Positions 2,747-10,546 of a stretch of 29,010 nt of DNA are shown one piece after another. Origin of the DNA: a virus. Taxonomy: Duplodnaviria > Heunggongvirae > Uroviricota > Caudoviricetes. Numbering within the stretch: the stretch's first letter is position 1; each line of letters begins with the position of its first letter. The DNA lies in the IMG/VR virus record IMGVR_UViG_2802429220_000002, positions 1-29,010 of that record; one strand, given 5' to 3'. The notes under the pieces are model-generated. The model saw only the letters and a program-made list of their open reading frames with translations. It was not told where the DNA came from and ran no database searches. Position numbers and translations under genes: made by a program.

Positions 2747-2809
2747 TGCTGCGGGTGCTTGAGGCTGTCTGTCTCAGGCATGAACACCAAAAGGCAGATA
2801 GAGAAAAGC

Positions 2810-2874
2810 CCCAGTTAACATTACGCGTCCGGCAAGACGCTTAACATTAATCTGAGGCCATATCTATGCTCTAC
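2810..2874 (-). ncRNA. putative Sok-like antisense RNA (approximate coordinates)
   Basis: On the minus strand: TTGCCT (complement of 2904..2909), 17-nt spacer, TAACCT (complement of 2881..2886) would drive a short antisense transcript across the mok start/leader, as in hok/sok loci. Ends are not determined. Confidence 0.35.
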
Positions 2875-3078
2875 ACACGTAGGTTAGCCTCTTACGTGCC
2901 GAAAGGCAAGGAGAAGCAGGCTATGAAGCAGCAAAAGGCGATGCTAATCGCCCTGATCGTCATCTGTTTAACCGTCATAGTGACGGCACTGGTAACGAGG
3001 AAAGACCTCTGCGAGGTACGAATCCGAACCGGCCAGACGGAGGTCGCTGTCTTCACAGCTTACGAACCTGAGGAGTAA
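2866..3078 (+). CDS. hok: Hok/Gef-family type I toxin (51-aa Hok from ATG 2923; a mok-like in-frame upstream start at 2866)
   Basis: Translation MKQQKAMLIALIVICLTVIVTALVTRKDLCEVRIRTGQTEVAVFTAYEPEE has the Hok/Gef architecture (N-terminal TM helix, conserved Cys, ...AYE C-terminal region) and closely matches chromosomal HokD/RelF as I recall it. The leader resembles R1 hok mRNA. Confidence 0.9.
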   Translation: MLYTRRLASYVPKGKEKQAMKQQKAMLIALIVICLTVIVTALVTRKDLCEVRIRTGQTEVAVFTAYEPEE

Positions 3079-6927: not shown

Positions 6928-7477
6928 ATGGCTAATACTGTAAAAATATCCAGCTTCGAGTTAATCAACGCTGATTTCCTAGAATTTATCCAGACCTTAC
7001 CGGAAAACTCTGTCGATCTGATAGTCACAGACCCGCCATACTTTAAAGTGAAGCCCGAGGGCTGGGATAACCAGTGGAAGGGCGACGATGATTACCTGAA
7101 ATGGCTGGATCAGTGTCTGGCGCAGTTCTGGTGGGTATTAAAACCCGCCGGAAGTCTTTACCTGTTCTGTGGTCATCGCCTGGCATCTGATATCGAAATC
7201 ATGATGCGTGAGCGCTTTAATGTGCTGAACCACATTATCTGGGCGAAGCCGTCCGGGCGCTGGAACGGGTGCAACAAGGAAAGCCTGCGGGCGTATTTCC
7301 CGGCAACAGAGCGCATTCTGTTTGCGTCCGGGAGATTTGGTTGCCGACTTTTTCATGGGGTCAGGCTCCATAATAAAAGCAGCGCTGGCACTTGGGGGCA
7401 TGGCGTTAAGCGTTGAACTTGAGTCTGAACGTTTTGAGCATACTGCGGGTGAAATAGTTACGTTGGCAGATAATTAA
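6928..7477 (+). pseudogene. DNA N6-adenine/N4-cytosine methyltransferase, interrupted by a frameshift near 7330 (or a sequencing error)
   Basis: N-terminal part (6928..7416) carries the catalytic DPPY motif (LIVTDPPYF). The AdoMet-binding motif (DLVADFFMGSGSIIKAALALG) is encoded in a different frame (7334..7477). Neither frame alone gives a complete enzyme. Confidence 0.75.
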
Positions 7478-7591: not shown

Positions 7592-7667
<76 letters not shown>

Positions 7668-7670
7668 TAT

Positions 7671-7745
<75 letters not shown>

Positions 7746-7877
7746 ACATTTGATAGAGGCGTATTGCAGCACTGGCGTATTTTTATTACGTGAGGACAGA
7801 TTGTTTTTTTAGGAACTCTCAGTTTTCGGGCTATGTTTTGAGGCCAGGTTAGCCTCAGTGCTGATTTTTTACAATAC

Positions 7878-7946
7878 CGGAATGGTGCATTATTGGTTGG
7901 GCTACGTAGTGAGCCCTATGGCAGGTACCGGTAATGCACCATTCCG
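7878..7946. repeat. 15-bp perfect inverted repeat (cggaatggtgcatta / taatgcaccattccg) with a 39-nt structured loop
   Basis: Arms at 7878..7892 and 7932..7946 are exact reverse complements. The loop holds a further hairpin (gggct...agccc). The ggtgcatta core also occurs at 7546..7554 upstream of the tRNAs. Confidence 0.6.
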
Positions 7947-8025
7947 ATGTTGTAAACATCACTTAGAGTAAGTTATAGAACAATTTGCTACTAAGTAAAA
8001 CCTGAAACCTGGGAATACATCTTTA

Positions 8026-8050
8026 CCGCCACACCTGGCGGTTTTTTTTT
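8026..8050 (+). terminator. Rho-independent terminator closing the methylase/tRNA unit
   Basis: ccgcca-cacc-tggcgg hairpin followed by nine T. Confidence 0.6.
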
Positions 8051-8148
8051 ATTCTGTTTTTTCATGGCTCGCTACGGCGGCCTTTTTCATGTATACCCTG
8101 GCGGTTATTATGATGGCTTGTTTATTTGTTCATAAGAGGATTGATACA

Positions 8149-8631
8149 GTGGTCACTTATGCTGATATCAGGGCAAAACGGGCCGAAATACTGAAAGCTA
8201 AGCAGGAATACATTCAGCGGTTGCGGGATACAGCCACAAGGCTGGTCAATGCCTATGAGTCTTCACTGGCGTTGCCGGAACTGCAATGGCGAGACATTGA
8301 GGGTGAGTTACATCCTTACGTCTATATTTGCCTCAATGGCTTCAGTGTCCGACCGGAGGATTTGCAGGTAGACCTTAGGGACGGAGTTGCGTTTAATTTA
8401 TACACGGTTGTTGATGACAATCCCCGCCAGTCTGCAAGTGTGGAAGTTGGTGTAAAGATTGTGCTGCTTGATGGCGATAACCTGACGATTTCAGTTAATG
8501 GTTATGGGGACAGAACATTTTCGCACGTAGATACCGATGCAAAAATTAACGAGGTATGCGAGTTCATCAAAGACAGTATTTTAATGTCGATGAATGATGT
8601 GAATTTGGCAAAGCATCTCTGCCGAAGATAG
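8149..8631 (+). CDS. uncharacterised cargo protein (~160 aa)
   Basis: Longest ORF is 8089..8631, but AAGAGGA sits 7 nt before in-frame GTG 8149, and a promoter-like TTTTCA-16-TATTAT (8084..8111) overlaps the 8089 ATG, so 8149 is the more likely start. Soluble, acidic, no motif I recognise. Confidence 0.5.
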   Translation: MVTYADIRAKRAEILKAKQEYIQRLRDTATRLVNAYESSLALPELQWRDIEGELHPYVYICLNGFSVRPEDLQVDLRDGVAFNLYTVVDDNPRQSASVEVGVKIVLLDGDNLTISVNGYGDRTFSHVDTDAKINEVCEFIKDSILMSMNDVNLAKHLCRR

Positions 8632-8844
8632 AAGGCAGGAGTCGTAAAAAGGAATCGTTCGAAAATCTCAGAATCACCAGGCTGCGCATTTGCGTGGCCT
8701 TTTTTGTATCCGCGCCACGCCCGGCGCATATCAAAAACCACAGAGCCTTTCAGGGGTGAGCTTACGGGATGGTCAGTGTGACTTTCTCTGTGGGCTGGTC
8801 ACCCCCCCCGGGCGCAGGCTCACCCCCTAAAAGGAAAAGTCACG

Positions 8845-9270
8845 ATGTTTGGTATTTTCAAAAAGAAAACTCGCAAGGCCATTACCGAAGTGAAGAAGAT
8901 GGAGAACCGCGACGCAGTGGAGGCGACCGTCTGGGGTGCGTATTCCATTGCATACGCTGACGACACCTGTGACGCGAAAGAAATCGCGGTACTGGAGAAA
9001 ACCATTGCAGCACTTCCTGCCTTTGCGCCGTTCTCCGGTGAGATTGCACAAATGAGTGCAAATATCCGCGCCCGTTATGAAGCGTCGCCGCGCTCTGCCA
9101 ATGCTGAAGCCCTTCGTCAGCTGGCTGATGTTGCAGGTACTGATGACGCAGTTAATGTGCTGTGCCTGTGTCTGGATATCGCAGACCAGGATGGCATTGG
9201 TCCGGATGAAGAAGCACAGCTCAAGAAAATTGCTCAGGCGCTGCAGTTACCGCTGGAGCAGTATCTGTGA
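8845..9270 (+). CDS. TerB-like (tellurite-resistance TerB family) protein
   Basis: 141 aa with a strong RBS (AAAAGGAAAAG). All-helical and acidic, with the TerB-type acidic motif (LDIADQDGIGPDEEAQLKKIAQALQL) and earlier DDTCDAKEIAVLEKTIAAL. Confidence 0.65.
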   Translation: MFGIFKKKTRKAITEVKKMENRDAVEATVWGAYSIAYADDTCDAKEIAVLEKTIAALPAFAPFSGEIAQMSANIRARYEASPRSANAEALRQLADVAGTDDAVNVLCLCLDIADQDGIGPDEEAQLKKIAQALQLPLEQYL

Positions 9271-9419
9271 AAAGTGCGCGCCTTGTACTGGCTGCCATCC
9301 TGCTGTTTCTGGTAGTGGTGGTGGATTTCACCGGACGGCTGATGTCGGTGCTGGCAGATGGTGTGCTGGTGGCGATGGCGCTGGTCGTGCTCCGGCCTTT
9401 ACTGCGCAAATCTGAATGA
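9267..9419 (+). CDS. putative small membrane peptide (50 aa)
   Basis: GTG overlaps the TerB stop (GTGA), implying translational coupling. Product VKSARLVLAAILLFLVVVVDFTGRLMSVLADGVLVAMALVVLRPLLRKSE is one or two TM helices. Below the ORF-track cut-off. Confidence 0.35.
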   Translation: MKSARLVLAAILLFLVVVVDFTGRLMSVLADGVLVAMALVVLRPLLRKSE

Positions 9420-9467
9420 CACCACACAAAAGGCATCTGCGGGTGCCTTTGACGGGGTGTTTTTTAC

Positions 9468-9489
9468 GGGCCGCTGGTGGCCCTTTTTT
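9468..9489 (+). terminator. Rho-independent terminator after the TerB cassette
   Basis: gggcc-gctggt-ggccc hairpin followed by tttttt; preceded by a second hairpin (aaggca...tgcctt, 9430..9449). Confidence 0.5.
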
Positions 9490-9508
9490 ATTTACAGGAG
9501 AAAAAAGT

Positions 9509-9901
9509 ATGTCTGAACCCTTATCCGGTTCCGGCACGGCGGCGGCGCTCGGTGGGGCGACGGTATTCGGGCTGTTCACCGGAACGGATTTCGGGATTGT
9601 GTTTGGTGCGTTCGCGGGTGCGTTGTTTGTGGCCACGATACCACAGACGATTTCTGTCTGGCGGGTGGCGGCGCATTTTCTGGTGTCGTTCATTGTTGGC
9701 GTGCTGGGGGCGGATGTGATGGCGTCTTATCTGGTCGAAAAACTGGGGCTTCACAGTAAATCTGTCGACGCGCTGTGTGCGGTGCTGGTGTCTGTGGTGT
9801 CGGTGAAGATTCTGTCGTTCATCCACCAGCAGGATATCGCATCACTGGTGTCCGGCCTGTTTTCCCGCCTGCGAGGCGGAGGAGGCGGTAATGTTAAGTA
9901 A
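9509..9901 (+). CDS. putative holin (multi-TM membrane protein)
   Basis: ATG 9509 after AGGAGAAAAAAG; the ORF-track start at 9416 would overlap the terminator. Gly/Ala-rich hydrophobic segments give 3-4 TM helices; sits just upstream of the endolysin. Confidence 0.55.
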   Translation: MSEPLSGSGTAAALGGATVFGLFTGTDFGIVFGAFAGALFVATIPQTISVWRVAAHFLVSFIVGVLGADVMASYLVEKLGLHSKSVDALCAVLVSVVSVKILSFIHQQDIASLVSGLFSRLRGGGGGNVK

Positions 9902-10166
9902 CCTTCCCGGATTGCTGAATGTGGTTTTATGCACGGTTATCGTGCTGACGCTCTTTTTTTATCGTCGCCGTGATTCCAGACATAAACCGCTGGTGTCATG
10001 GCTGGCCTGGCTGCTGATGCTGCTGTATGCCTTTGCGCCACTCAGCTATCTGTGTGGTCGCCCGCTAGCAACGGGCTGGCTGGAAGTGTTTTTTAATCTG
10101 CTGTTCTGCGTGCTGGTGATGCGTGCACGTGGGAACGTCACAAAAATCCTTTCATTCCGGAGGTGA
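9891..10166 (+). CDS. putative holin/antiholin-like membrane protein
   Basis: 91 aa with 2-3 predicted TM helices and a charged C-terminus; overlaps neighbours within the lysis cassette. Confidence 0.45.
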   Translation: MLSNLPGLLNVVLCTVIVLTLFFYRRRDSRHKPLVSWLAWLLMLLYAFAPLSYLCGRPLATGWLEVFFNLLFCVLVMRARGNVTKILSFRR

Positions 10167-10546
10167 GCATGTCGGGTAAATTCAGATTCAGTCGTCGCAG
10201 TGAAAAAAATCTGGAAGGCGTAAAACCACAGCTGGTTGCTGTCGTTCGTCGTGCCCTTGAACTGACGGAGGTTGATTTCGGCATTACGGAAGGCCTGCGC
10301 ACGAAAGAACGCCAGAAACAGATGGTTGCAGAAGGCAAGAGCCAGACCATGAACAGCCGCCACCTGACAGGTGATGCGGTGGATGTTGTTGCTTACATTG
10401 GCAGCCAGGTGTCATGGAACTGGCCTCTGTACGAGAAAATCGCGCAGGCATTTAAGCAGGCCGCCGCAGAGATGGGTACTGCCATCGAATGGGGCGGGGA
10501 CTGGAAAACACTGAAAGACGGACCTCACTTTCAGTTGAAACGCTGA
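10163..10546 (+). CDS. endolysin, peptidase M15 family (L-alanyl-D-glutamate endopeptidase type)
   Basis: Zinc-ligand motifs SRHLTGDAVD (H-x6-D) and C-terminal GGDW...DGPHFQ, as in VanY/M15 phage endolysins; ~127 aa. Confidence 0.8.
   Translation: MSMSGKFRFSRRSEKNLEGVKPQLVAVVRRALELTEVDFGITEGLRTKERQKQMVAEGKSQTMNSRHLTGDAVDVVAYIGSQVSWNWPLYEKIAQAFKQAAAEMGTAIEWGGDWKTLKDGPHFQLKR

Follow-up and report, generated by a model that had tools for sequence, protein, structure and literature searches.

The 29,010-nucleotide caudovirus sequence analysed here (IMG/VR record IMGVR_UViG_2802429220_000002, referred to in its full length as the window) carries three open reading frames (ORFs) between its tRNA genes and its lysis genes, in the interval 8026-9489 of the late region of a phiP27-like prophage. 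A preliminary description had taken these ORFs for one self-contained, terminator-flanked three-gene system of a composition not described before. Comparison with related prophages indicates instead that the interval consists of two independent accessory cassettes (morons) stacked one behind the other, namely a unit with the single gene ORF1 and a unit formed by a non-coding leader, tciA and tciB. The latter two genes correspond to tciA/tciB of phage P1, so that the claim of an undescribed composition fails for genes 2 and 3; an already named and widespread pair here stands beside an unrelated orphan cassette. We hold this architecture and the gene identities with high confidence. Our fuller explanation, in which the second of the two stacked cassettes is a membrane-tethered TerB module made in lytic growth, is held with moderate confidence, and the mechanism proposed for tciAB within it is offered only tentatively. 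The features on which the argument turns are as follows.

8025..8051 (+), T1, backbone terminator; stem 8025-8042 of 7 bp with a 4-nt loop and a T9 run (terminator scan)
8064..8088 (+), degenerate second hairpin with a T-run (GGCTCGCTACGGCGGCC-TTTTT), from alignments and comparison with 8679-8709
8084..8111 (+), promoter-like element TTTTCA-16-TATTAT upstream of ORF1; 9/12 in the promoter scan
8149..8631 (+), ORF1, predicted 160-residue cytoplasmic alpha/beta protein of PHROG 5091
8679..8706 (+), T2, internal terminator; stem 8679-8700 of 9 bp with T6, top rank in the scan
8709..8844 (+), tciA leader, non-coding, about 135 nt, conserved before both TciA clades
8845..9270 (+), tciA, encoding a 141-residue TerB-fold protein, homologue of P1 TciA
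9267..9419 (+), tciB, encoding a 50-residue DUF3927 peptide, coupled to tciA
9468..9489 (+), T3, backbone terminator; stem 9468-9483 with T6, just upstream of the holin gene (scan)

The two units separate readily in related genomes. The window clade, defined as the 80 viral contigs with TciA at least 95% identical, includes 78 loci with enough upstream sequence, and ORF1 precedes tciAB in only 15 of them. The check that the preliminary description had proposed, co-occurrence in related prophages, thus fails for the trio and speaks against a single system, the more so as ORF1 also occurs alone before holin genes. A relative of ORF1 is present in 18 viral loci, 14 with tciAB downstream and four without, and about 25 E. 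coli genomes show the same succession of ORF1, tciA and tciB. ORF1 without tciAB was found in E. coli A19 (L006), in a viral contig (L020) and in loci L105-L108; in Citrobacter and Hafnia prophages it lies directly 5' of the holin gene, with two different holin families and no tciAB. Its distant relatives (42-50% identity) are not adjacent to tciA, and it is absent from P1 and from O157 prophages. Among 5,426 complete E. coli genomes, ORF1 DNA is present in 27; a tciAB match at the nucleotide level occurs in 1,662, often in several copies, and covers at least 80% of the pair in 169.

The junctions are equally informative. The two ORF1 loci L006 and L020 align with the window over 8025-8733 and again from 9416, so that the tciAB indel can be placed at 8734-9415, with T2 and T3 left behind. 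In loci with tciAB but without ORF1, the match to the window starts at 8677-8696, that is, at T2. The pair is variably present between otherwise collinear phages, with clean junctions, and no promoter of its own was found. In loci whose ORF1 identity spans 69-99%, TciA stays at 94-100%, which indicates mosaic histories of the two units, and their GC contents are 42-50% for ORF1 vs 53-58% for tciAB. In E. coli C5 (NZ_CP010122; L004, 4375..5262), an extra insertion with a reverse-strand DUF4145-domain gene and a small ORF lies exactly 3' of tciB, which marks the junction at about 9415-9420 as a recurrent point of cargo insertion.

Terminators tell the same story. The scan returned nine terminator-like sites against 3.1 +/- 2.1 expected, and its best three are all on the + strand. 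The hairpins with T-runs that had been proposed to bound the interval are indeed present, at 8025-8042 and 9468-9483, but both belong to the backbone and a stronger one, T2, lies between the first and second genes. A terminator at the T1 position also occurs in loci without ORF1 (for example L034 and L099), and the segment from 9416 onwards, T3 included, is kept in loci without tciAB. T1 is therefore not specific to the cassette, and T3 belongs to the lysis-cassette side. T2 terminates the ORF1 unit and is kept 3' of ORF1 in loci without tciAB; because of its place between ORF1 and tciA, the three genes cannot be read as one terminator-bounded unit, and the preliminary description does not stand on this point. 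The hairpin at 8064-8088 adds a further detail. Its intact form sits directly 5' of the tciA leader, after T1, in loci that lack ORF1, and since the degenerate copy precedes ORF1 and T2 resembles it in sequence, ORF1 looks as if it was inserted between two copies of a hairpin-terminator.

The T-run of the degenerate copy provides the -35 hexamer of the promoter-like element upstream of ORF1. By the scan alone this element carries little weight, as promoter matches were at chance level (four found, 3.0 expected). Conservation argues more strongly for it: the -10 hexamer TATTAT is unchanged in 12 of 13 aligned ORF1 loci, the exception (L019) having unrelated upstream sequence, and the -35 is nearly unchanged, while the spacer differs and the coding sequence of ORF1 has drifted to some 70% identity at the protein level. 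Homology among the ORF1 loci ends just upstream of the element. Because the hexamers were kept where spacer and coding sequence diverged, TTTTCA-16-TATTAT is likely to be the promoter of ORF1, as had been suggested.

The predicted product of ORF1 is, as first described, an uncharacterised protein of about 160 residues. Translation would begin at GTG 8149, with a Shine-Dalgarno sequence, AAGAGG, at 8134-8139, nine bases upstream; we take this to be the true start because it is conserved and many homologues begin exactly at that residue. The alternative start ATG 8089, given by PGAP, was rejected, as it is not conserved and would place the promoter-like element inside the ORF. The ratio of nonsynonymous to synonymous substitution rates (dN/dS) is 0.18-0.25 for ORF1, 0.07 for TciA and 0.12 for TciB; all three indicate purifying selection and thus real genes. 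ORF1 matches the profile of PHROG 5091 (E=3e-41, 154 of 160 residues), a family that carries no function label and that all 36 of 36 diverse ORF1 relatives match as well, and has no match in Pfam, NCBIfam, PADLOC or PDB sequence searches. A word-indexed search returned 23 relatives, all from Enterobacteriaceae, and an exhaustive profile search 118 cluster representatives at E<=0.001, 52 of them at E<=1e-10; a scan of genome contigs with the ORF1 profile found no relative. One match in the exhaustive search, a low-complexity repeat protein of 2,983 residues (P0154), was dismissed as bias. Nearly all of the relatives are of about 155-180 residues and have in common the motifs ITYxDI, SLxLP, PYV, TVxDDxPRGG and CExIKD. 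The structure model, a confident one (predicted local distance difference test score 87, predicted template modelling score 0.79), combines a long N-terminal helix with an antiparallel sheet and a helix at the C-terminus. Neither sequence nor fold matched a known phage structural or lysis-accessory protein, a comparison on which the preliminary description had staked its reading of this gene. ORF1 is not recognisable as a structural, lysis or defence protein and stands as an orphan. Its product is soluble and cytoplasmic, and the gene, equipped with a promoter-like element and a terminator of its own, recurs in the late, lysis-adjacent region. A conserved promoter-like element, the terminator T2 and variable presence with clean junctions are the marks of a moron.

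The second gene had been assigned to the TerB family, and this assignment held in profile searches. TciA scores 29.0 bits against Pfam TerB (PF05099; cut-off 24.4) in a match that covers residues 11-57 only, and a PF05099 match is precomputed on nearly all TciA homologues. A profile built from 29 TciA sequences aligned with Klebsiella TerB (2jxu_A) at E=1.4e-6, residues 14-135 on 20-144, and the structure model, an all-helical TerB fold, matches 2ou3 and 2h5n. By profile and by structure model, the TerB fold of TciA, a soluble protein, is thus confirmed. It also matches PHROG 632 (E=5e-64), and the family is highly conserved across Enterobacterales (mean column identity 84%), including the acidic motifs ADD/ADGxCDxxE (37-46) and DIADQDGxxxxEE (111-123); judged by their sequence, these two "ADG...E" motifs are typical of TerB and are putative metal-binding sites.

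TciB, described from the outset as a translationally coupled 50-residue membrane peptide, kept that description. It matches PF13064 (DUF3927; E=1.6e-14) and phrog_1470 (E=7e-24), the latter annotated as "TciB-like". Alignment and hydropathy place two hydrophobic segments at about 6-19 and 26-43, with basic ends, and Asp20, Asp31 and Pro44 are invariant. The GTG start of tciB overlaps the TGA stop of tciA as GTGA (9267-9270). TciB adjoins TciA with this 4-nt overlap in 155 of 155 viral loci, 80 of 80 in the window clade and 75 of 75 in an O157-type clade that shares only 42% TciA identity with the window. A TciA-TciB fusion is known as one database protein (P0075); as it comes from a single contig, it adds little to the evidence for pairing. 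The two genes therefore seem to form an obligate, translationally coupled pair. Remnants of tciAB persist in degraded prophages: directly after the tRNA genes of two decayed prophages, E. coli Ecol_AZ155 carries a truncated DUF3927 gene (L109, 3500..3616) and E. coli E1654 a tciA fragment with tciB (L110, 3006..3358).

Compared with P1, tciA is 79% identical at the nucleotide and 85% at the protein level, and TciB 49% at the protein level. The names tciA and tciB reportedly go back to the annotation of phage P1 by Lobocka et al. in 2004. The P1 record NC_005856 states the function of tci "by homology". A CRISPR interference (CRISPRi) screen of P1 scored tciA, tciB and tciC as non-essential (PMC10695390), and a 2025 preprint reports only altered transcript levels in an hfq mutant. 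Our literature search found no paper that tests tciAB function. PADLOC, which the preliminary description had named as a check, gave no defence-system match: no PADLOC-DB v2 model, those of Shango and Bunzi included, reached E<=1 with ORF1, TciA or TciB.

The leader is a new element of the unit. It is 80-95% identical upstream of both TciA clades, between which TciA itself shows only 42% identity. In a blastn comparison, window positions 8677-8912 align to the O157 locus at 81% while the remainder of tciA does not. The leader is thus more conserved than the tciA coding sequence, a new point. Klebsiella phages and phage Evi likewise have it upstream of tciA, 100-650 nt after the antiterminator gene Q; P1 is without it. 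In the predicted fold, CCUUU (8747-8751) pairs with the Shine-Dalgarno sequence AAAGG (8831-8835) around a GGGGUGAGC/GCUCACCCC stem, and the ribosome-binding site would be occluded. Support for this fold is weak (z = -2.1): the 71 distinct leaders vary too little for covariation, with one compensatory CG-to-UA pair in three of them. No Rfam family was found over the leader in searches of the window and of 7750-9550. Scans gave no convincing sigma-70 promoter upstream of tciA, and the leader itself was rejected as one, with no acceptable hexamers by scan or on inspection of the alignment. A role as pR'/qut is unlikely because three different Q families accompany the leader and its distance from Q varies. 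The leader may control translation, serve as a processing site or be no more than a recombination linker. Two variable features were seen within it. With C8, the poly-C tract of the window at 8808..8817 (+) differs from that of most relatives (C5-C6), and a poly-G tract farther upstream also varies in some loci; both are possible slippage sites. The first 48 nt of the leader have a match in PPompW prophages that carries the annotation of an IS110-family element (ISEc20).

On the other side of tciB, the segment 9416..9508 (+) between tciB and the holin gene contains two hairpins and T3 and stays with the holin side where tciAB is absent; its sole Rfam match is weak (suhB/mmgR, 20 bits). In Stx-type prophages the corresponding stretch directly upstream of the holin gene encodes the small RNAs PasA/PasC, according to a study that lists TerB only as a neighbouring gene (bioRxiv 10.64898/2026.05.13.724894).

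Both units occupy a slot with well-defined landmarks, and its position had been read correctly from the start. To the left, the gene order is Q antiterminator, CPBP protease gene, frameshifted DNA methyltransferase gene, tRNA-Thr and tRNA-Gly, followed by the three ORFs; to the right come two holin genes and an M15 endolysin gene (9509-10546), then an HNH endonuclease gene, a terminase gene and head genes. The lysis genes match the Pfam families Phage_holin_8, Phage_holin_3_7 and Peptidase_M15_4.

7592-7667 (+), tRNA-Thr, left landmark of the slot (ARAGORN, Rfam tRNA)
7671-7745 (+), tRNA-Gly, left landmark of the slot (ARAGORN, Rfam tRNA)
9509..10546 (+), phiP27-type lysis cassette, right landmark of the slot (Pfam, PHROGs, phiP27 annotation)
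9509-9901 (+), holin of the lysis cassette (Pfam and PHROG matches)
9891-10166 (+), holin of the lysis cassette (Pfam and PHROG matches)
10163-10546 (+), M15 endolysin of the lysis cassette (Pfam and PHROG matches)

The tRNA genes upstream and the lysis cassette downstream are therefore as first described. The position is also rightly called equivalent to that of stx, because phiP27 carries stxA2e/stxB2e at the matching place, after two tRNA genes and upstream of the same holin pair as in the window. The closest public relative of the window is a prophage in E. coli OkiPb01695, at 99.9% identity.

Judged by its context, tciAB expression probably belongs to lytic growth rather than to the quiescent lysogen, because the pair is flanked by terminators, shows no evident promoter, follows Q in some phages (the leader-tciA unit comes directly after Q in phage Evi and in Klebsiella phage 1 LV-2017), and in P1 belongs to a C1-repressed operon, with the tci genes between the C1-controlled ban promoters/operator and ban. 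In the mechanism that we tentatively propose, TciB would form a helical hairpin within the inner membrane and tether or partner TciA at the cytoplasmic face, giving a minimal membrane-associated TerB module. Expression would come mainly in lytic development, here by Q-antiterminated read-through of the flanking terminators and in P1 from the ban operon, and the structured leader may gate tciA translation. The module might condition or protect the envelope until programmed lysis, through ion or membrane-potential homeostasis; an alternative protective role would be Ter-type resistance to pore-forming colicins or to superinfecting phage. Tethering has precedents by analogy. TerB of the ter operon and Bunzi are described as membrane-associated (bioRxiv 10.1101/2022.05.11.491447), and in DjlA a TerB-like domain lies next to a membrane helix (bioRxiv 10.1101/2024.08.29.610257). 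TerB of the ter operon is reported to work with the membrane protein TerC, and TciB might serve TciA in a comparable way.

Other readings of the interval must be weighed against the two-cassette arrangement and this membrane-tethered TerB module. A single undescribed defence or superinfection-exclusion system of three genes, driven by the promoter at 8084-8111 and bounded by the outer terminators, could appeal to the ORF1-tciA-tciB order kept in 14 of the 18 viral ORF1 loci and in the E. coli genomes mentioned above, to the conserved promoter-like element, and to the TerB domains of the validated defence systems Shango and Bunzi. The strong terminator T2 in its middle, the 63 of 78 tciAB loci (besides P1 and the O157 prophages) that lack ORF1, the occurrence of ORF1 alone before holins in three genera, the mosaic histories, the backbone nature of the outer terminators and the lack of a PADLOC match together leave it very little credit. 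Lysogenic conversion for genuine tellurite or metal resistance is scarcely more credible. Resistance to tellurite by the ter operon requires several genes (terB, terC, terD and terE), and terC, terD and terE are absent here; TciA does belong to the TerB family and source names read "tellurite/colicin resistance protein", but the name was transferred by homology and no promoter of the pair's own is evident.

Two further readings would give the tciAB pair a task of its own. It could be an abortive-infection or toxin-antitoxin (TA)-like module in which TciB is a membrane-depolarising peptide and TciA its cytoplasmic TerB-type sensor or neutraliser, with a trigger such as infection, metal or membrane stress freeing TciB to collapse the membrane. 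With its gene order and its overlap of 4 nt, the pair looks like a TA operon of the antitoxin-first kind, and TciB is similar in size and hydrophobicity to type I toxins such as Hok; the strict pairing of TciA and TciB and the other cargo of the slot, such as the DUF4145 protein of strain C5, would also fit, and Bunzi pairs TerB with membrane-spanning helices, for which membrane surveillance has been proposed (bioRxiv 10.1101/2022.05.11.491447). We nevertheless consider this reading unlikely, since no PADLOC model matched, the context points to lytic-phase expression, CRISPRi knock-down of P1 tciA caused no strong defect (PMC10695390), and locus L109 keeps a tciB-like ORF without tciA, which argues against strong TciB toxicity, although the copies are truncated. 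A role in lysis timing, with the TciB hairpin acting antiholin-like on the holin and TciA relaying a cytoplasmic signal, appears more improbable still. It draws on the spacing of 90 nt between the end of tciB and the holin gene, seen in roughly three of every four close loci, and on the place of the pair in the Q-to-lysis late region of E. coli and Klebsiella phages. Yet a terminator separates tciB from the holin gene, the neighbouring holins are of unrelated types, a 1.9-kb esterase gene stands between pair and holin in O157 prophages, the P1 copy is part of the ban operon and has no lysis gene in its vicinity, and close relatives (L006, phiP27) lyse without tciAB.

The tRNA-to-lysis slot is a lambdoid site for Shiga toxin and other conversion genes, and its other cargo is for that reason of medical and ecological interest. 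The tciAB pair is among the commonest occupants of the slot and is also found in P1-like phage-plasmids. Work on its function now has a cleaner start, from a two-gene unit with an obligate coupled pair, a conserved leader and a separable ORF1. There is a small chance that tciAB and its structured leader are an undescribed two-gene membrane-acting immunity or exclusion module shared by many E. coli lambdoid prophages and P1-like phage-plasmids, and that ORF1 is a separate new defence or counter-defence factor. If membrane-level protection or exclusion proved true, it would add a minimal TerB system and help explain the wide spread of Ter domains.

Some observations on the surrounding prophage stand apart from this argument. 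Between tRNA-Gly and T1, at 7868..7958 (+), lies a near-perfect inverted repeat that forms a hairpin of about 29 bp (minimum free energy -53.6 kcal/mol, z = -6.9, 0 of 200 shuffles equally stable) and is conserved in the related prophages L006, L008, L009 and L013. It could be a processing site or a small RNA; Rfam matches to microRNA precursors on both its strands were judged spurious. The phage DNA methyltransferase gene at 6928..7477 (+) is disrupted, with six stop codons when read in one frame; it is annotated as incomplete in the closest genome and is intact, at about 1,050 nt, in relatives. In the prophage early region, a sok antitoxin RNA at 2753..2928 (+) (Rfam RF01794, 116 bits) marks a hok/sok module, and the Hok/Gef gene is annotated as frameshifted in the closest genome. 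A record deposited as a phage of Actinobacillus pleuropneumoniae (PP818812.1, "Actinobacillus phage vB_Apl-pPE4"; L002) has 95% DNA identity to the E. coli prophage in the tciAB and holin region and also carries hok/gef; its assignment to an Actinobacillus host looks doubtful.

Among known systems, tciA-tciB(-tciC) of P1 is the nearest counterpart: gene order and overlapping tciA/tciB frames are the same, the PHROGs and Pfam families are shared, and phage tRNA genes adjoin the pair in P1 as well. The small gene tciC, third in P1, has no counterpart here, since a tblastn search with P1 TciC gave no significant match in the window; P1 in turn does not have the conserved 135-nt leader. Its pair sits in the C1-repressed ban operon of a phage-plasmid, whereas that of the window sits in the Q-to-lysis slot of a lambdoid prophage. 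TerB of terZABCDE (Klebsiella pneumoniae, PDB 2jxu) has the fold and the two acidic motifs of TciA, and an E. coli TerB protein has been reported as inner-membrane-associated (as cited in bioRxiv 10.1101/2022.05.11.491447). Sequence similarity to TciA is distant, however, and TciA is phage-borne, without terC, terD, terE or terZ, and partnered by a 50-residue DUF3927 peptide.

Shango and Bunzi have a TerB domain as does TciA, and the Bunzi TerB protein itself has transmembrane helices. Both are otherwise unlike tciAB: Bunzi has another multi-domain architecture, and Shango needs a helicase and an ATPase, which are absent beside the TerB gene here, its neighbours being ORF1, tciB and the holin gene. 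In DjlA a short membrane element keeps the TerB-like domain on the cytoplasmic side of the inner membrane, as proposed for TciA, but helix, TerB-like domain and J domain belong to one chain; in the window a second peptide would act as the anchor, and a J domain is absent. Lastly, the lambdoid stx-slot morons, such as stx2e in phiP27 and LT-IIb in the SerU-LTIIb prophage, occupy the same slot beside the same lysis genes and are likewise terminator-bounded; in contrast to these, the cargo of the window is non-toxin and consists of two stacked cassettes, of which only ORF1 has its own promoter-like element.

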